In this document: positions 1 to 22,670 of the stretch, in pieces
Layout: every line of letters starts with the position of its first letter
How positions within the stretch are numbered: the stretch's first letter is position 1
Assembly: GCF_003334335.1 (NCBI RefSeq)
Contig: NZ_QOWQ01000011.1
Length of the DNA: 64,000 bases
Strand: one strand, 5' to 3'
Source of the DNA: Escherichia coli
Lineage (GTDB): Bacteria > Pseudomonadota > Gammaproteobacteria > Enterobacterales > Enterobacteriaceae
The notes under the pieces: generated by a model
Databases searched by the model: none
The model's input: the letters and a program-made list of their open reading frames with translations, nothing else
Told to the model about the DNA's origin: nothing
Program-made: the position numbers and the translations under genes

Positions 1-175
1 AAGCCACGGTTGCTGGGGCGAAGTGGTTATCTACGACAAACGCTTGCTGACCAAAAATTATGGCAAGCGACTACTGGATGCATTACCGGTATTTCCGATA
101 GAGCAACCGGAAGTCCCTGAAGGTATAGTTAAAAAGAAAGAAAAAACGAAATCCCCACGCCGTCGGCGGCGTTAA
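1..175 (+). CDS. dinG: ATP-dependent DNA helicase DinG, C-terminal fragment (5' end lies outside the window)
   Basis: Open frame from window edge ending ...KKKEKTKSPRRRRR then TAA at 173-175; recognised DinG C-terminus; followed 27 nt later by ybiB with its own RBS. Confidence 0.8.
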   Translation, partial: SHGCWGEVVIYDKRLLTKNYGKRLLDALPVFPIEQPEVPEGIVKKKEKTKSPRRRRR

Positions 176-202
176 TGATGTGAGTCAGGTAAGGAGTCGT
201 AA

Positions 203-1165
<963 letters not shown>

Positions 1166-1171
1166 TTCTTT

Positions 1172-1248
<77 letters not shown>

Positions 1249-1293
1249 ACGCCCGGCGTGCAGCATAAAAATACAACAAACACATAACATAAA

Positions 1294-2391
<1,098 letters not shown>

Positions 2392-2399
2392 AAAAAAGC

Positions 2400-2421
2400 C
2401 CGTCCAGTGGCGGACGGGCAA
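2400..2421 (-). terminator. Intrinsic terminator hairpin, probably for ybiJ (A-tract on + side, T-tract on - side)
   Basis: gcccgtccagtggcggacgggc inverted repeat immediately preceded by aaaaaaaa on + strand (a U-tract when read on - strand). Confidence 0.5.
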
Positions 2422-2479
2422 ACAAGGGTAACATAGGATCAATGAGGGTTAGAGCATATGCGTCTGTCGGCAAACAGAC

Positions 2480-2618
2480 AGGGAAATACTTGTGCTGGAC
2501 GTAGCGTAAACGCCTGATCCGTCCAACGGTTCGGATTTTGTAGGCCTGATAAGACGCGGTAGCGTCGCATCAGGCATCTGTTGCCGGATGCGGCGTAAAC
2601 GCCTTATCCGTCCTACGA
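2480..2618. repeat. REP/BIME cluster (about three REP units)
   Basis: Copies of gccggatgcggcgtaaacgccttatccgtcctac and tgtaggcctgataagacgcg...gcatcaggc in alternating orientation. Confidence 0.85.
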
Positions 2619-2619
2619 A

Positions 2620-2880
2620 TTACTTATAAATTACCGCAGTACCGCTTAATTTATTGTTGTTGGTGGCGGAAGTGATGCTGTATCCACTGGCACCGGCTGC
2701 CGCGGCTTTCTCAGCCAGTTTCGCTTCCAGGGCATCGAGGGTGGATGCGCCATCGGCAGAAACCACGCCGATTTTATTCATGTTCTGTGCCTGGGATGCC
2801 GTTACCGGTTCCGCCGCGAACACGCCAAATGACAGAGTTGAAAGAGCCATAGCAGCAACAACAGTATTGATAGTTTTCAT
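2620..2880 (-). CDS. ybiJ: YhcN/DUF1471-family small periplasmic protein
   Basis: 86-aa ORF with signal peptide (MKTINTVVAAMALSTLSFGVFA) and C-terminal ...GTAVIYK. Confidence 0.92.
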   Translation of the reverse strand: MKTINTVVAAMALSTLSFGVFAAEPVTASQAQNMNKIGVVSADGASTLDALEAKLAEKAAAAGASGYSITSATNNNKLSGTAVIYK

Positions 2881-3144
2881 AATTAATCTCTCGCAGGTGA
2901 TTTTTGTATAAGTGACGTTGTTTCGTCGATGTGATGAGTATCACGTTTTTTTACGAGAGATAAAATCGAAGAGAATTGACCGCCTTGTTCAAATAAATTG
3001 ATTGATATCTAACCTACTGATAAACCATTTATTTGTTGTACTTATGAACTTGTTTTATACCGCGTGGCAGTCACAGCAGCGTTAAAGGCACGGAATGACA
3101 CGCAAAATACAAATTATACTCGCTATGCATCTCGCCAGTTGTAG

Positions 3145-3411
3145 TTAACGTAACTGGCTGTCTTTCGAACCTCTGCGATTATATCCTGTATAAGCTGGTT
3201 TTTGTAAATCTTTCTCCTGCTGACAATGAATACATAAGCGCACGCCAGGAATGGCTTCCCGACGGGCCTGCGGGATGGGGGCACCGCACTCTTCACATTC
3301 ATCCAGGCTTTCGCCGCGCGGAATTTCACCCCGAGCGCGGGCAATCGCATCTTCAATTGTACTGTTGATCTGTTCGTTGACGGCGTCATCGTTAGCCCAA
3401 CCGGATGCCAT
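3145..3411 (-). CDS. ybiI: DksA/TraR-type C4 zinc-finger protein
   Basis: 88-aa ORF with CEECGAPIP...CIHCQ four-cysteine zinc finger. Confidence 0.92.
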   Translation of the reverse strand: MASGWANDDAVNEQINSTIEDAIARARGEIPRGESLDECEECGAPIPQARREAIPGVRLCIHCQQEKDLQKPAYTGYNRRGSKDSQLR

Positions 3412-3484
3412 ATCGACCTCCCCATATCAATACTTGTACAGTTAAGTGTAGCTAATCCAGGGACGAACTCGGGCAGTTCAAGCA

Positions 3485-4162
3485 TCAGATCTCCGACCAT
3501 TCCCGCAGCAGATTATGATAAAGATTAAGCAGCGACAGGATCTCTTCACTTTCGCCGTAGCGGCTTTTCAGCGACTGAATATTGTTGTCCAGTTCAAACA
3601 GCATGGCGCGCTTTTTATCATCGCGGATCATCGACTGGATCCACATAAATGATGCCACTCGTACGCCGCGGGTTACGGGTGTCACGCAATGCAGGCTGCT
3701 GGAGGGATACAACACGAGATCGCCTGCCGGGAGTTTTACCCGATGTTGTCCGAAGGTGTCATTAACGACCAGTTCGCCGCCGTCGTAGCTTTGTGGATCG
3801 CTTAAAAACAGCGTGGCAGAAAGGTCAGTACGCATCCAGCCGTTTTGTGGATGGCTGCGTACTGCGCCATCCACATGGAAACCATAGGTTTCATTGTTCT
3901 GATAGCGATTAAACAGCGGCGTGGAAAGGGTACGCGGCAAGGCCGCGGCAAAGAATAAAGCATGTTGGTTAACCGCGTTCAGCACCTCATTTTGCAGGGC
4001 GGCGTATAACGTGCTGCGGGTGTCGACCTGTTGATTGTTCTTAACTTGCGCACCTTGTGCGCCGGTGGTGACGCGTCCATCCACCCATTCGGCTTGTTCC
4101 AGTTGTTCGCGAAAACGAGCGACGTCCTGTGGCGATAACACGCCGGGAATGTGGTACATCAT
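3485..4162 (-). CDS. ybiX: PKHD-type Fe(II)/2-oxoglutarate-dependent hydroxylase
   Basis: ORF-track start (4198) trimmed to [10 protein letters not shown] at 4162; HxD motif (GFHVDG); lies 41 nt downstream of fiu on the same strand. Confidence 0.9.
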
Positions 4163-4203
4163 ACAATTTCTCCAAAAAGTGGGGCCTGCGCCCCACATCT
4201 GAA

Positions 4204-6486
4204 TCAGAAATGCATATTGGCTGTGAGCAAGAAGGTTCTTGGCTCGCCCGGGTGATAACGGTAGCCGCTCTTGTTGATTGAGGCGACGTAATCGGTATCA
4301 AACAGGTTGTAAACGTTTAGCTGGAAGTCGAGATTGCGATTAACTCGATACCCCAGTTTGGCATCGGCGACCCAGTAACCTTCGGTAAACGCTGGCGTTC
4401 CCACCGCGCCGTCTGAACCTTTATGCATACTGCCGATATAGCGTGCGCCCGCGCCAACAGAGATATCGTCGGTTGCCTGATATTGGCTCCATAAGGTGAA
4501 GGCGTGCTCCGGGGTATACGGCAGCGATGAGGAACCATCCTGGGCAACATCTTTGCCGTTTTTGATGGTTGCTTTTTGCTGGGTATAGCCGCCAATCACC
4601 TGCCACGCGGGAGTGATATTCCCGGCCACGGATATCTCATAGCCTTCGACGCGTTTCTTACCGTATTGCGAGTAAGTTCCGTCATCATTTTGCTCAACTT
4701 CATTTTCGATATCAGTGCGGAACAGCGCGGCGGTGAGCAACAGACGTTTATCCAGAACCTGCCATTTGGTGCCAATCTCGCTGGTGTTGGCTTTTTGCGG
4801 TTTAAAATCGGTGCGGTTGGCACTGTTACCGCTGCCAGACTGCGCAAGGGCGAAGTTGTTGCCGCCCGGAGGCTGCTGGGAAACGGCATAGTTAATATAG
4901 ACATTGCCGTTTTCCGTCAGGTGATACAGCGCCCCGGCTTTCCAGTTCATCAGATTGCCCGACTTGGCGGTGTCGACGGTGGTGACCGGAGAACCTTTTG
5001 CCACACCAGTTGGGCAGGTGATGGCACCGCGTCCGCTGCCGCCGCAGGCGGTGGCACTGTCATATTCAGTATGATAATTATCCAGACGGATCCCGCCGTT
5101 CAGCTCAAAATCACGGGTGATTTGCAGCGTATCAAAGGCGTAAATTGCGAAGGTATCCGTCTGACCATTGGCGTTTGCGCCGTTGCGCGTCAGGCCGCCG
5201 GGATGAATGCTGCTGTCAGGATGATAAATATTTACCGCGGGTAACGTCACCGGATTAACGCCGTAGTTAGTCTGCGTTTCACGGGTAAATTCCACGCCGG
5301 TACTGACATCATGACCGATAGAACCGGTATAGAACGTCGAGGTCAGGTTGGTCTGGTTGGTGAGAATTTTATTACTCACATCTTTGGTATTCGCCGTGCG
5401 TGACCAGGTCCAGCTATTCACATCGCTGGTGGGCTGAGTAATATTCGACGCCCCGCCCATAATCGCCGTCATCAGGTAATCCTGCTTTACGCGCGACCAA
5501 CGGGTAGTATTGCGAATGGTGGTGTTATCGTTGATGTCGTGCTCAAAACGCATGGTGGCGGTGTCGGTGGTCGAATCGTCGTAATCGGAATCCGTGCCGT
5601 AAAAGTTATGAGTATCAACTTTTCCGGAATGATTCAGGGCCGCCGTTCCCGCAGATGGGGCAGAATAGCCCGGCAAACCGATGGTCGGAATGCCGCCGTC
5701 TGGCGTGTTGTGCTGGGTGACATGCAGATAATTAAGATACAAACGATTCGCTGTACCAAGGCCAAAAGCGACAGAAGGGGCGACGCCGTAACGCTCATTT
5801 TTGACTTTGTCGCGTCCGGCATCGTGCGTTTTTTCGCCCATTACATTCAGGCGCACCGCGGTGGTATCACCAATGACCTGATTGACGTCCAGCGTGCCGC
5901 GGCGGAACCAGGCGCTGCCAATACTGGCGGAGGCGTCAATGCCGGAATCATTGCGCGGCTGCTTGCTGATCATATTGATCGAGCCTGTCGGTGCGCTGCG
6001 CCCGTAGTCGGTGCCGGACGGCCCTTTAATCACTTCGACCTGCTCGGTATTGAAGGTGTCGCGCGAGACGCTGCCGATATCGCGAATGCCATCAATATAA
6101 ATACTGTTAGAGGTATCGGCACCACGCATATAAATGGCGTCGCCAGTGGTGGAGTTACCGTTCTCACCCGCAAAAAACGCACCCACGCCGGGGACGTTTT
6201 TGAGCGCGTCGGTAAGGTTGGTTGCGCCCTGATCTTTAATCACTTGTTCAGAAATTACCGTCATCGTGCGGGTAGTATCCGCTACCGGACGCGAGAATTT
6301 CGGATCGGCAGATTGTTGTGGCGCATAAAGCGAAGGCGTTGATGCTTCGACAACCAGCGTGTCATCCGCGTTAGTTTGCCCTTCGGCGGCGAGTGCCTGA
6401 GCCACAGGCGTGATGCCAATACAAAGACCGGCAAAGAACGTGAGCGAATGAAATTGTCTGGCAGGGAAATTGCGATTGTTTTCCAT
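4204..6486 (-). CDS. fiu: TonB-dependent catecholate-siderophore outer-membrane receptor
   Basis: 760-aa ORF; signal peptide, plug and beta-barrel, C-terminal ...NMHF aromatic terminus; recognised Fiu. Confidence 0.96.
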
Positions 6487-6590
6487 TTTGCAGGTGACTT
6501 TTTCTTATATGTTGAAATTTTCACTGCCACGAGAAAGCCTCTCTGCGGATGCGATGCCACTGTTAATCCCGTGATAGTGCTCGTGAAAGT

Positions 6591-6615
6591 GATAATAATT
6601 TTGATAAGCATTATC
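6591..6615 (-). promoter_or_regulatory. Fur box in the fiu promoter region
   Basis: gataataattttgataagcattatc closely matches Fur consensus GATAATGATAATCATTATC; about 105 nt upstream of the fiu start codon. Confidence 0.7.
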
Positions 6616-6750
6616 ACTTGGAGCGATTTTCTATCACCCATTGCGCGAAAAAGAAATACATTTATTTACATTGAGTTCATATTTGATGTTTTTTGATTAC
6701 AAAACAGACGAAAACTGCATCCAGAGGCGAATGCAGTTACGTTGGTGGGG

Positions 6751-7011
6751 TTATTTGTAGATGGTTGCAGTACCGAACATCTGGTCATTTCCGCCTGCGG
6801 AATTAATGACATAACCTTTCGCGCCTTGTTCGCGCGCTTTTTCTGCCAGTTTATCCTCCAGATCGCTTAGGTTTGATGCGCCAGTTGCCGAAACGGTACC
6901 GGCGGGCCGTAGCTGACCGCTGTCCAGGTTACTCATCGGTTGCGCGGCATAAGCCGTGAGAGAGATTCCGCTCAGGACGGTGGCAATCAGTAGTGTGAGG
7001 CACTTTTTCAT
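6751..7011 (-). CDS. mcbA: YhcN/DUF1471-family periplasmic protein (MqsR-controlled colanic acid/biofilm protein)
   Basis: ORF-track 134-aa ORF trimmed to MKKCLTLLIATVLSGISLTAYA (86 aa) at 7011; paralogous to ybiJ (shared ...DLE.KLAEKA...GAKGY... core). Confidence 0.88.
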   Translation of the reverse strand: MKKCLTLLIATVLSGISLTAYAAQPMSNLDSGQLRPAGTVSATGASNLSDLEDKLAEKAREQGAKGYVINSAGGNDQMFGTATIYK

Positions 7012-7286
7012 AATGACATCCTCATAAATACAACGGGTAGTGCCTGATAAGTGTAGGTCGCCTGCGCGATGCAAATGACGCAAAAAATTGACAGAGATGT
7101 GCTTATTTTTTGAACGATATATTTTTACAAAATAAGACAAATCAATGACATGCATAATGCTGATTTTTATGATGAATTGCCATAAACCATAGCCATGTTA
7201 AGGTTTTGGGGAATGATAAACGCAGCCAGATATTTACCCTGTCGCGTTATGCGGGTATCTTACGCCGCTGCTTAAAGGAGAATGCT

Positions 7287-8213
7287 ATGTCCGCCCAGAA
7301 ACCGGGGTTGCATCCGCGCAACCGTCATCACAGCCGCTACGATCTCGCCACGCTTTGTCAGGTCAATCCTGAACTCAGGCAATTCCTCACGCTTACACCC
7401 GCCGGGGAGCAAAGCGTAGACTTTGCCAATCCGCTGGCGGTGAAGGCGCTCAATAAGGCGTTGCTGGCCCATTTTTACGCCGTAGCGAACTGGGATATCC
7501 CCGACGGTTTTCTCTGCCCACCAGTACCGGGCCGGGCGGATTATATTCATCACCTTGCCGATTTACTGGCAGAAGCAAGCGGAACAATTCCAGCGAATGC
7601 CAGCATTCTGGATATCGGCGTTGGTGCGAACTGTATTTATCCGCTGATTGGCGTACATGAATATGGCTGGCGTTTTACCGGTAGTGAAACCAGCAGCCAG
7701 GCGTTAAGCAGTGCGCAGGCGATTATCAGTTCTAATCCGGGGCTTAACCGCGCCATTCGTCTGCGTCGGCAAAAAGAGAGTGGGGCGATTTTTAACGGCA
7801 TCATCCATAAAAACGAGCAATACGACGCGACCTTGTGTAACCCGCCATTCCACGATTCCGCCGCTGCGGCACGGGCAGGTAGTGAGCGTAAACGCCGTAA
7901 CCTGGGGCTGAACAAAGACGATGCACTGAACTTTGGCGGCCAGCAACAGGAGTTGTGGTGTGAAGGCGGTGAAGTCACCTTTATCAAAAAGATGATTGAA
8001 GAGAGCAAAGGCTTCGCGAAGCAGGTGATGTGGTTTACATCACTGGTATCTCGTGGTGAAAACTTACCGCCGTTGTATCGTGCCCTGACGGACGTGGGCG
8101 CGGTGAAGGTGGTTAAAAAAGAGATGGCCCAGGGGCAAAAGCAGAGTCGCTTTATTGCCTGGACCTTTATGAACGACGAGCAGCGCCGCCGTTTTGTCAA
8201 TCGCCAGCGTTAA
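7287..8213 (+). CDS. rlmF: 23S rRNA m6A1618 methyltransferase
   Basis: Start trimmed to [10 protein letters not shown] at 7287 (AAGGAG RBS at 7275-7280); NPPF methyltransferase motif (LCNPPFHDS). Confidence 0.93.
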
Positions 8214-10435
8214 AGCGTTGGTTCCCCCGGCGGTAACGGTTCAGCCGGGGTCGCGCCCGGAGCAGGCAGCACCTGATAAGTCTGCACTGGCGCGCGAACG
8301 CCCGCCAGGTCGAAATGTTTTTTCACCTGGCTGTCGAGGGCAAAGCGTACCGTCCACTGTTTGAGTGGCAGCGTGGTGAACGAAACACGCAGTGTAAACG
8401 CGGTATTGCTTAAGCCGACAATCCCGGCAAAATTCGGTTCACCAATAATCAGCCCGCGAATTTCTTCGTTTTCCATTAATTCCGCTACCGCATCTTTCAG
8501 TGCCTGATTGGCTTTATCAGCATCTTCATGGCGATCAACATCATAATTTGCCACCACCGAACCAATGCCGCGGACAAAGTTAGCAAAGGTGGTTATCGAA
8601 GACCACGGAATGATGTGATACGCCCCGGTATCCTGTCGTACGCCCACGGAGCGAATCGACATCCGTTCCACTGTGCCGGTCAACGGCCCGATAGTCACCA
8701 AATCTCCAGTGTTCATGCCGTTTTCAAACTGAATAAATACCCCGGTGATAATATCTTTCACCAGCGTTTGCGAACCAAACGAGATAGCCAGACCTAATGC
8801 CCCGGCACCTGCCAGCAATGGCGCGATATTGACGCCGATTTCCGACAACACAATCATGATGGTGATGGTACTGATAATCACCGCCAGCGCGTTACGAAAC
8901 AGCGTAAGCAGGGTACGCGTGCGGGCGCTGGGTAGCGGGCGGCCATGAATATCCGAAGCCAGCCGGTTTTCGATCAAACTGGCGAGCACCGTCCAGCCAA
9001 CCGCCGAGAAGAAAAGAATGAGTGCGATACGGATCAGGATATCTACGGTTTTCTGCCCCGCGCCGTTTTGCAGCCAGTTCCAGAAATCGAACAATCCCCA
9101 TGCGCTCAACAGCAACATTACCGCCACGCAGACTGTCAGAATACGCGCCGTTTTCAGCGCCGCCGACAGCCAGCCATTCAACCGTTTTTGCAGCTCCGGA
9201 TAGTTACGCTGAGTATGTGGCGAGAGAGTGATGGTTTTCGCCAGCCAGCGGGAAAACATACCGGAAACAAACGCTGCGATACCAATAATCGCCAGGCTGC
9301 GCACCGTTGCACCCATCATAAATTTCAGGCTGTTGCCCGGATCGAACAACGAAAAGAAAAACAGCACGATAAAATAGGCGCTTGCCAGCCAGTGCCACAC
9401 CAGCGCAAAGGCGCGGATAAACAGGCTGAAAAAGGCCAGCGAATGCTCCGCGAAGTTGAGCAAATGCTGGGTAATCTCTTTTTTATTACGAAAGATCAGG
9501 TACAACGCCCAGACGGTCATGCACAGCATAATGATGACGTTCGCCAGCGCACCTATCTGTACATTCACCTGATTAGAGATAATCGGCACGGCCACAATCA
9601 GGCCATAACCTATCAAACTGCTTAACCAGCTCAGGCGACGACTCCAGTAACGGGCGCTCTCGTCCTGAATCGTGAACGGGCGCAGCTCCGCCACGTTTGG
9701 GCAAAAAATCAGGCGTAGTACGGCTTTGAAAAATTCAATGAGGGCAAAGGCGTTGAGAAACAAACTTTGTTGGAAAGCGATGGTGCGACTGCCTGCATTC
9801 AGGTTGTCGCTTAATACCTGGCCGACAAATAATGTCAGGGCCAGTAACAGCAGGTCGATAATAAACGCCCCGATAATCATCGCCGGAAGCTGCAACCAGT
9901 TGCTGCGCTCACGATTTTTTTGCCGCGCCCACTGACCCATTTTGCGATACAGCGGCAGTGCGCACAGGCGAATCAGCCAGTAAAAACCAAACACTAATAC
10001 CGCTAACATTGAAAAATGGGTCAGCGCATTGCTGAAGGTTTGTGGATTAAACGGCTTATGCGGGGAGCCGGTGATATTGCGATAAAGTTGCCCGAAGCGG
10101 GCGGAAAGGGCTTCACCATAATGGCGGCTGACTTCGGTGACCTTTTGCAGCACGGTTTGCTCTTCGACCAGCGTCGGCGGCACTATTTTTGGTACCGGTT
10201 CAGCAGGGGGCGTAGCGGCAACGGTGCGCAACTGGTCGATCAACTCTTTACGCGAGGTGTCATTATCCAGCACATCCGCCAGTGCGCCATAGGCCGCTTT
10301 TTTTTGTTCGATATCCGGTTCCGGGGCCGGTTCAGTCGTTGAGTCCGTTGTCGTTGTGGTTGTAACGCCGGGTATGGATACCGCGTGGGCAGGTGCGCCC
10401 AGCAGGCAGAAGAGGATGAACAGGATCCACCGCAT
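8210..10435 (-). CDS. ybiO: MscS-family mechanosensitive channel
   Basis: Start trimmed to [18 protein letters not shown] (signal peptide) at 10435; multiple TM helices and MscS-like C-terminal domain; stop overlaps rlmF stop in a shared TTAA. Confidence 0.92.
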
Positions 10436-10585
10436 GACTCCTCCAGTGAGAAAATAGAGCAAAAAGATAAGTATAGATGCTGGAGGAGGGGCGATTTTAA
10501 ATGAGAGGAATCTGGTGTGCCTCCCTTTCGGGTGAAAGGGAGGAAGGGATATTAAGCAGGTTGCTGACAACGTGCGGGCTTTTTT

Positions 10586-10685
10586 GCCGGATGCGGCGTG
10601 AACGCCTTATCCGTCCTACAAGTTCATGCAATTTTAATAAGTTGCCAGATATCCTGTAGGCCTGATAAGCGTAGCGCATCAGGCA
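10586..10685. repeat. REP/BIME element (two REP units in opposite orientation)
   Basis: gccggatgcggcgtgaacgccttatccgtcctaca ... tgtaggcctgataagcgtagcgcatcaggca. Confidence 0.85.
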
Positions 10686-10695
10686 ATGTGTCTTA

Positions 10696-11418
10696 TTAAG
10701 AGACGTGCTGCAAAAATTCCTGCAAGCGCTGGCTCGGCGGGTTCTTGATCAACACCTGCGGATTGCCATCTTCCGCAATCCGGCCTTTGTCGATAAAGAT
10801 CAGCCGCGAAGCTACTTTCTCGGCAAAACCGATTTCGTGGGTCACGATCACCATCGTCATCCCTTCTTCAGCCAGATCCTGCATAACCTTCAGCACTTCA
10901 TGGCGCAGTTCCGGGTCAAGAGCGGAAGTCGGTTCATCAAACAGCATCATTTTCGGCTTCACCGCCAGCGCGCGGGCAATCGCCACACGCTGCTGTTGAC
11001 CACCAGAAAGTTCGGAAGGGTAGTGATGTGCACGTTCTGCCAGACCGACTTTCGCCAGCAGCTCACGTGCCAGTTTTTCCGCCTCTTCTTTGTTCGCGCC
11101 ACGCACGCGTAGCGGGCCAAACATGACGTTTTCCAGCGCTGTCAGATGCGGGAAGAGGTAAAACTGCTGGAACACCATACCTGCTTCCTGGCGAATCAGG
11201 CGCTCGTCAACTTTCGGATCGTTAACCTTCAGGCCATCGACAATCAGATCGCCGGAGGTGATTTCTTCCAGTTTGTTGATGCAGCGCAGCAGGGTCGATT
11301 TACCGGAACCGGACGGCCCGATAATCACCACGACTTCGCCCTGGGCAATGTTCAAATCGATATTGTGCAGCACCTGGGTTGGGCCAAAGTGCTTGGAGAC
11401 GTTTTTAAATTCAATCAC
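10696..11418 (-). CDS. glnQ: Glutamine ABC transporter ATP-binding protein
   Basis: 240 aa; Walker [13 protein letters not shown] signature LSGGQQQRV. Confidence 0.97.
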
Positions 11419-22570: not shown

Positions 22571-22670
22571 GCCTGATGCGCTACGCTTATCAGGCCTACG
22601 CAGTACCTGCAATATATTGAATCTGCAGGACTTTGTAGGCCGGATAAGGCGTTAACGCCGCATCAGGCAT
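22571..22670. repeat. REP/BIME element
   Basis: gcctgatgcgctacgcttatcaggcctac ... tgtaggccggataaggcgttaacgccgcatcaggcat. Confidence 0.85.

Follow-up and report, generated by a model that had tools for sequence, protein, structure and literature searches.

The 64,000-nucleotide stretch of Escherichia coli DNA analysed here (contig NZ_QOWQ01000011.1 of RefSeq assembly GCF_003334335.1, hereafter the window) carries, close to its start, five genes on the minus strand, transcribed in the order mcbA, fiu, ybiX, ybiI and ybiJ. The outermost genes encode two similar small proteins of the DUF1471 family, and those between them a catecholate siderophore receptor, an oxygenase and a zinc-finger protein. 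An initial annotation, made from the letters of the sequence, proposed a stress/biofilm and iron-uptake module in which the two small proteins are co-evolving. The analysis presented here points with considerable confidence to another reading of this region (b0802-b0806 in E. coli K-12), namely that diverged DUF1471 paralogs happen to flank an iron-uptake operon, as separately controlled units and not as a co-evolving module.

Locus identity and gene content

Over positions 1-10955, the window matches positions 835046-846000 of E. coli K-12 MG1655 with 100.000% identity, the MG1655 coordinate being the window coordinate plus 835045. Among 5426 complete E. coli genomes, 5417 cover a query of about 4.9 kb over the region to at least 80%. 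The genes and other features are listed in Table 1. All five proteins (YbiJ, McbA, YbiI, YbiX and Fiu) pass the curated NCBIfam equivalog cut-offs, and in RefSeq the matching genomes carry these five gene names. The names first given to fiu, ybiX and ybiI are correct; the open reading frame (ORF) listing likewise gives exactly the coordinates, strand and length of 86 amino acids (aa) annotated at the outset for ybiJ and mcbA.

Table 1. Features of the mcbA to ybiJ region, in window coordinates, with the five genes in order of transcription followed by other elements
Feature	Position	Strand	Characteristics
mcbA (ybiM, b0806)	6751-7011	-	86-aa DUF1471 protein, predicted periplasmic; NCBIfam NF040473, 174.5 bits (cut-off 110)
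fiu (b0805)	4204-6486	-	TonB-dependent catecholate siderophore receptor, 760 aa; NF007349, 1507.6 bits (cut-off 686)
ybiX (b0804)	3485-4162	-	PKHD-type Fe(II)/2-oxoglutarate hydroxylase, 225 aa; NF003972, 519.8 bits (cut-off 399)
ybiI (b0803)	3145-3411	-	DksA/TraR-family C4 zinc-finger protein; NF008243, 160.5 bits (cut-off 96)
ybiJ (b0802)	2620-2880	-	86-aa DUF1471 protein, predicted periplasmic; NCBIfam NF007611, 173.1 bits (cut-off 110)
fiu promoter-like site	6610-6637	-	-35 GTGATA, -10 GATAAT (promoter scan)
Phased Fur-box array	6585-6621	-	Four overlapping matches, 12-15/19 to GATAATGATAATCATTATC, 6-bp spacing; best 15/19
Terminator-like hairpin after mcbA	6701-6738	-	10-bp stem followed by a U-rich tract
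Near-invariant 67-bp block upstream of ybiJ	2914-2980	-	Alignment of 10 genera, Escherichia to Klebsiella/Raoultella
CRP palindrome CGTGATACTCATCACA	2930-2945	-	One mismatch to TGTGA-N6-TCACA; half-sites invariant across genera
Repetitive extragenic palindromic (REP)-type element	2543-2613	-	Rfam naRNA4/CssrE RF02564, 78.4 bits (gathering score 59.5); immediately 3' of ybiJ
ZbiJ, Hfq-binding small RNA (sRNA)	2390-2486	-	MG1655 annotation; far 3' untranslated region (UTR) of ybiJ
Terminator hairpin followed by U8	2398-2419	-	Terminator scan and fold, z -4.0
ybiE	2458-2517	+	19-aa ORF, antisense to ZbiJ

Two of the reading frames extend beyond the called starts, that of mcbA spanning 6751-7155(-), with 86 aa counted from the annotated start at 7011, and that of ybiX reaching 4198. 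The cysteines of YbiI (CEEC…CIHC) follow the C-x2-C … C-x2-C pattern required in the DksA/TraR C4 zinc-finger family, and its score against the narrower TraR subfamily model TIGR02419 (59.5) lies just under the cut-off of 59.7; literature of 2009 already places this TraR/DksA-like protein in an iron operon. The three inner genes are closely spaced (41 bp between fiu and ybiX, 73 bp between ybiX and ybiI), and 264 bp separate mcbA from fiu as well as ybiI from ybiJ.

Homology and origin of the flanking paralogs

YbiJ and McbA align by BLASTP without a gap over all 86 residues, with 40 identical residues (47%), 60% positives and an E-value of 1e-22; this similarity is far above chance and the proteins are homologous, as the initial annotation had supposed. 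Both match the whole of the 55-residue Pfam model PF07338 (YdgH/BhsA/McbA-like, that is DUF1471; model positions 1-55) with their residues 34-86, at E-values of 1.2e-17 for YbiJ and 3e-19 for McbA. Read by eye, each N-terminus has a basic start, a hydrophobic core and an A-x-A site (VFA|AEP in YbiJ, AYA|AQP in McbA), from which a Sec signal peptide of 22 aa is predicted for both. Concerning YbiJ, a 2025 preprint names it as a McbA paralog, and an YbiJ-msfGFP (monomeric superfolder green fluorescent protein) fusion is described as faintly enriched at the envelope in one medium. A search for solved structures of YbiJ or McbA found none and returned distant family members only, the solved chains 2noc_A and 2ma4_A matching weakly in sequence (E 1e-4 to 3e-5); the fold known from solved members of the family is of the mixed alpha+beta type. 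Purifying selection acts on both genes, the ratios of nonsynonymous to synonymous substitution rates (dN/dS) being 0.03-0.19 against orthologs from Escherichia, Citrobacter, Silvania and Leclercia.

The family counts about ten paralogs in E. coli, some of them encoded by adjacent genes (Eletsky et al. 2014, PMC4092069), and all ten K-12 members, extracted from MG1655, were compared. That the bracket arose when a single DUF1471 gene was duplicated locally long ago, fiu-ybiX-ybiI coming to lie between the copies, is a tentative explanation whose chances fall a little short of even, the alternative being that two paralogs, dispersed independently, ended up there. It is plausible because family members cluster beyond chance. 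In K-12, yjfN and bsmA are adjacent, with yjfY 8 kb off; arithmetic from the coordinates of the 10 genes in 4.64 Mb gives about 0.08 pairs expected by chance at a distance of at most 4.1 kb, against two seen; and adjacent pairs are known in Salmonella as well (PMC4092069). The shared orientation and identical length of ybiJ and mcbA are in line with such an origin, and the best K-12 paralog of McbA is YbiJ, although by a narrow margin (72 versus 70 bits). However, YbiJ, McbA and BhsA are roughly equidistant (47, 47 and 43% identity), which leaves local duplication plausible without proving it; YhcN and YbiJ share 45% identity. YbiJ and McbA each score higher on the NCBIfam BhsA profile than on the profile of the other, and BhsA scores about equally on both of theirs. 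In a bootstrapped neighbour-joining (NJ) tree, the McbA and YbiJ ortholog groups each receive 72%, but support for groupings of the McbA/YbiJ/BhsA trio is just 12-32%, with 28% for McbA+YbiJ, 15% for McbA+BhsA and 12% for YbiJ+BhsA; DNA similarity outside the coding regions is nil. That ybiJ and mcbA are each other's closest relatives cannot be demonstrated from these sequences.

Two other candidate traces of common history were considered and rejected. For recent gene conversion between ybiJ and mcbA, no long shared DNA was found, the sole stretch being one of 25 nucleotides at the 3' end, 72% identical. The equal 264-bp spacers, as remnants of a duplicated unit, have no mutual similarity, and their lengths vary elsewhere (293 versus 300 bp in C. 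braakii).

The Fur-controlled fiu-ybiX-ybiI unit

The array of Fur boxes upstream of fiu overlaps the promoter-like site, including its -10 element, and the underlying motif TGATAATG.TTATCA.AAT.ATTATCA is conserved in an alignment of 10 genera, being near-invariant from Escherichia to Klebsiella and Raoultella. Published data agree with this picture. A Fur peak in chromatin immunoprecipitation with exonuclease treatment (ChIP-exo) is assigned to fiu-ybiX in MG1655 and to fiu, ybiX and ybiI in strains W3110 and W (PMC10164565), and deletion of fur raises the three transcripts strongly, with log2 fold changes (log2FC) for fiu, ybiX and ybiI of 5.47, 5.21 and 3.04 in MG1655 and 10.0, 7.1 and 5.3 in W3110 (PMC10164565). 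The Fur-1 iModulon includes all three genes, and E. coli fiu is described in an operon with ybiX and ybiI (PMC12004943). The initial description of a Fur-regulated fiu-ybiX-ybiI operon was thus essentially right, in view of the Fur-box array, ChIP-exo, RNA sequencing (RNA-seq) of fur deletions and the iModulon.

Within this unit, genomic SELEX (systematic evolution of ligands by exponential enrichment) shows a peak between ybiX and ybiI for RNA polymerase bound to any of four minor sigma factors, S, H, F and E (PMC5493296), and a weak Fur-like match (14/19) lies near that peak at 3511-3529, inside the 3' end of ybiX and about 100 bp upstream of ybiI. Because of this peak and this match, ybiI may have an additional, internal promoter of its own. 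Upstream of the fiu Fur boxes, at about 6650-6675, an AT-rich block (ATGTAAATAAATGTATTT) is conserved in 10 of 10 aligned genera.

mcbA and ybiJ in relation to this unit

The gene mcbA is not in the Fur unit: it lies upstream of the Fur-controlled promoter, behind a terminator-like hairpin, and shows no significant change when fur is deleted (log2FC 0.40, p 0.31; PMC10164565). The hairpin folds with -16.5 kcal/mol (z -4.4), none of 200 shuffled sequences being equally stable, and its stem has been preserved across Escherichia, Citrobacter, Silvania and Leclercia. No Fur box of at least 14/19 was found upstream of mcbA or of ybiJ, the best matches of 12-13/19 at each representing the background for AT-rich DNA.

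The region upstream of ybiJ has features of its own. The near-invariant 67-bp block is much better conserved than the rest of the ybiI-ybiJ spacer and encloses a palindrome for CRP, whose binding at ybiJ has been reported by genomic SELEX (PMC3105977), by chromatin immunoprecipitation sequencing in enterotoxigenic E. coli (PMC4287617) and by Footprint-seq, with a dissociation constant of 1.9 nM (PMC12871828). Allowing at most one mismatch, the CRP motif occurs three times in the whole window and upstream of 5 of the 10 K-12 DUF1471 genes (ybiJ, bhsA, yhcN, yahO and yjfY), those of ybiJ, bhsA and yhcN being published sites; the same motif scan found none upstream of mcbA, fiu, ybiI, yjfN or bsmA. 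In the retrieved loci L046 and L049, such palindromes lie at about 5990-6005 and about 7482-7497, respectively. Beyond the palindrome, no upstream block common to ybiJ and other DUF1471 genes was found (best ungapped match 26-32/67). At pH 4.4, ybiJ, yhcN and bhsA are among the top 20 induced genes (PMC10746267). Because of the CRP site and acid induction, ybiJ shares its regulation with unlinked paralogs and not with mcbA, and it is mostly independent of the fiu unit.

Downstream, the long 3' region of ybiJ spans 2390-2613(-) and yields the sRNA ZbiJ, which has been validated (PMC8175672); the hairpin and U8 at its end overlap the end of hcxB, a gene running convergently. The REP element has a related second copy at 2493-2528, a direct repeat with 83% identity. 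Elsewhere in the window, Rfam models identify the sRNA RybB at 52930-53008(-), with 105 bits, and ES036/CssrF at 22592-22634(-), with 41.6 bits.

Probable read-through from the fiu promoter into ybiJ

Deletion of fur also raises ybiJ, with a log2FC of 1.24 in MG1655 and 3.08 in W3110 (PMC10164565), and in the same data the response declines monotonically along transcription in both strains (fiu > ybiX > ybiI > ybiJ), whereas upstream and other-strand neighbours barely move (ybiC -0.03, rlmF 0.02 and mcbA as above). The hairpin that follows ybiI lacks a U-tract and falls short of significance (z -1.6), and because no clear intrinsic terminator follows ybiI, some transcription from the fiu promoter could enter ybiJ. 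Taken together, the declining log2FC, the flat neighbours and this hairpin make read-through from the derepressed fiu promoter into ybiJ probable.

A further step would make ybiJ and ZbiJ genuine distal members of a Fur-controlled transcript, the read-through being functional. Such membership would be compatible with the existence of separately controlled units and draws on the same three observations, but it is on balance unlikely. Neither a Fur peak nor a strong Fur box is found at ybiJ, which figures in no published Fur regulon or iModulon list; its increase might be a secondary effect, such as one of stress in fur mutants; the spacer of 264 bp before it holds a strongly conserved, independent promoter region; and Rho-dependent termination is not predictable by the scans used. 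More doubtful still is the proposal that iron starvation feeds both the DUF1471 protein YbiJ and the Hfq-dependent ZbiJ by Fur-derepressed read-through across ybiI. If true, a shortage of iron would thereby be coupled to an output of envelope stress and sRNA that is recorded in no current Fur regulon list.

Synteny

Conservation of the arrangement was surveyed with Fiu as the query and one genome per species, which returned 44 loci, none of them from Salmonella. The complete order mcbA-fiu-ybiX-ybiI-ybiJ is found in six genera (Escherichia, Citrobacter, Silvania, Leclercia, Pseudocitrobacter and Raoultella), with rlmF and ybiO on one side and ybiB, or hcxB and ybiB, on the other, and in these loci E. 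coli McbA is invariably the best-scoring match of the protein encoded at the mcbA position. Pseudocitrobacter faecalis has mcbA and fiu about 9 kb apart, with other ORFs in between (870-10000 of locus L014). The gene mcbA is missing from its slot in Klebsiella michiganensis, K. grimontii and K. spallanzanii, where the other genes are retained (a 204-aa ORF takes its place in K. michiganensis, at 9089-9703 of locus L016), and Salmonella is reported to have no McbA and to retain YbiJ (PMC4092069). In Pantoea and Enterobacter ludwigii, fiu and ybiX are on their own, and no other gene of the five occurs within 10 kb; the pairing of ybiX with fiu holds at all loci that do not end early, these two included. 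Because the flanking housekeeping genes rlmF, ybiO and ybiB are equally syntenic, the conserved order reflects general collinearity. The expected synteny in other enterobacteria is thus present as a five-gene order in six genera and breaks down at mcbA in three Klebsiella species; mcbA is a dispensable member, and the synteny of the bracket is no stronger than that of its flanks.

As regards fiu itself, some E. coli strains carry an IS4 or IS621 insertion within the fiu region. Copies 98-100% identical to E. coli fiu also occur on contigs (L027, L043 and L044) labelled as a metagenome-assembled genome (MAG) of 'uncultured Bacteroides' and as 'Streptomyces sp. DH24' (398 and 381 bp, coverage below 2); their E. 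coli-like fiu is most likely contamination.

Rates of divergence and co-evolution

Co-evolution was assessed on 25 genomes carrying all the genes, by a mirror-tree criterion with partial Mantel tests controlling for RlmF, YbiO and YbiB distances. All protein pairs correlate in the raw comparison because of their shared phylogeny, McbA and YbiJ with a Mantel r of 0.64. After correction for species divergence, no McbA-YbiJ correlation is left in these 25 genomes (partial r -0.21, p 0.99), the test being crude and partial Mantel tests being known to be unreliable. The two proteins also evolve at different rates. McbA has a mean Kimura distance of 0.54 (0.45 over its mature region), against 0.20 in YbiJ and about 0.19 in RlmF, YbiO and YbiB; McbA thus diverges 2.2-2.7 times faster than YbiJ. 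With no signal left and with such unequal rates, the idea of co-evolving small proteins finds no support here.

Interpretation

For E. coli K-12, publications or annotation already cover these genes and their paralogy, as well as Fur control of fiu-ybiX(-ybiI), the CRP site of ybiJ and the sRNA ZbiJ, and the locus is ordinary because it is a fully annotated K-12 stretch with separately controlled units. According to the reading preferred here, these units would follow one another head to tail on one strand, with old, diverged DUF1471 paralogs on either side. The upstream paralog, mcbA, would be monocistronic, repressed by McbR and ended at its own hairpin terminator. The genes fiu, ybiX and ybiI would be transcribed from a promoter overlapped by Fur boxes, repressed by Fe-Fur and derepressed under iron starvation, the fiu-ybiX receptor/oxygenase pair being presumably the ancient functional core and ybiI a later addition. 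Lastly, ybiJ would be expressed from a promoter region of its own, which is highly conserved and carries a CRP site of the bhsA/yhcN type, would be induced by acid and would have a long 3' UTR that gives rise to ZbiJ. The arrangement as a whole would have been inherited vertically, together with its flanking genes, in part of the Enterobacteriaceae.

Several points weigh against this reading. The gene ybiJ, up 2.4- to 8.5-fold on fur deletion, has less than full independence from the iron unit; the operon boundaries are drawn from sequence and published expression tables; repression of mcbA by McbR (YncC) is known here through papers that cite Zhang et al. (2008); and McbA retains unexplained partial correlations with YbiI (r 0.44) and with Fiu (r 0.36).

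The opposite view, in which the five genes form one stress/biofilm and iron-uptake module whose flanking DUF1471 proteins co-evolve and act together with Fiu in the envelope, can invoke the common strand, the order kept in six genera, the predicted periplasmic location of YbiJ and McbA beside an outer-membrane Fiu, the mild derepression of ybiJ and the leftover McbA correlations, but it is highly improbable given the terminator-like hairpin and missing Fur response of mcbA, the different regulators (McbR for mcbA versus CRP and acid for ybiJ), the loss of mcbA from its slot in three Klebsiella species and Salmonella where fiu-ybiX-ybiI-ybiJ stay, the presence of fiu-ybiX in Pantoea and E. ludwigii with no DUF1471 gene within 10 kb, the partial r and unequal rates of McbA and YbiJ, and the equal synteny of the flanking housekeeping genes. 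As to co-regulation, the published fur-deletion RNA-seq shows fiu-ybiX-ybiI strongly responsive, ybiJ weakly so and mcbA unresponsive. More generally, bracketing by paralogs and conserved order within a collinear core-genome region are no evidence for a functional module.

Comparison with known systems

In sequence, gene calls and names, the region shows no difference from MG1655 b0802-b0806 as given in RefSeq and EcoCyc. YbiJ and McbA resemble the DUF1471 family at large in their PF07338 domain, their size of about 90 aa and their predicted signal peptide (PMC4092069). However, the published adjacent DUF1471 pairs (yjfN-yjfO and yhcN-ycfR-like) directly abut, whereas ybiJ and mcbA are split by three unrelated genes. 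Among the CRP-dependent DUF1471 stress genes, bhsA and yhcN are like ybiJ in their TGTGA-N6-TCACA site and in their induction at pH 4.4, and bhsA, like ybiJ, gives rise to an sRNA from its 3' UTR (BhsB; PMC8175672); mcbA differs from bhsA and yhcN in having no CRP site and in standing outside the cited acid-induced set. For the iron-uptake genes, the counterparts are PiuA-PiuC of Pseudomonas and Acinetobacter and CciT-CciO of Caulobacter, the same conserved, Fur-controlled receptor/oxygenase pair as fiu-ybiX (PMC12004943). Compared with these systems, ybiI and the DUF1471 neighbours join fiu-ybiX only in the rlmF-ybiB context.

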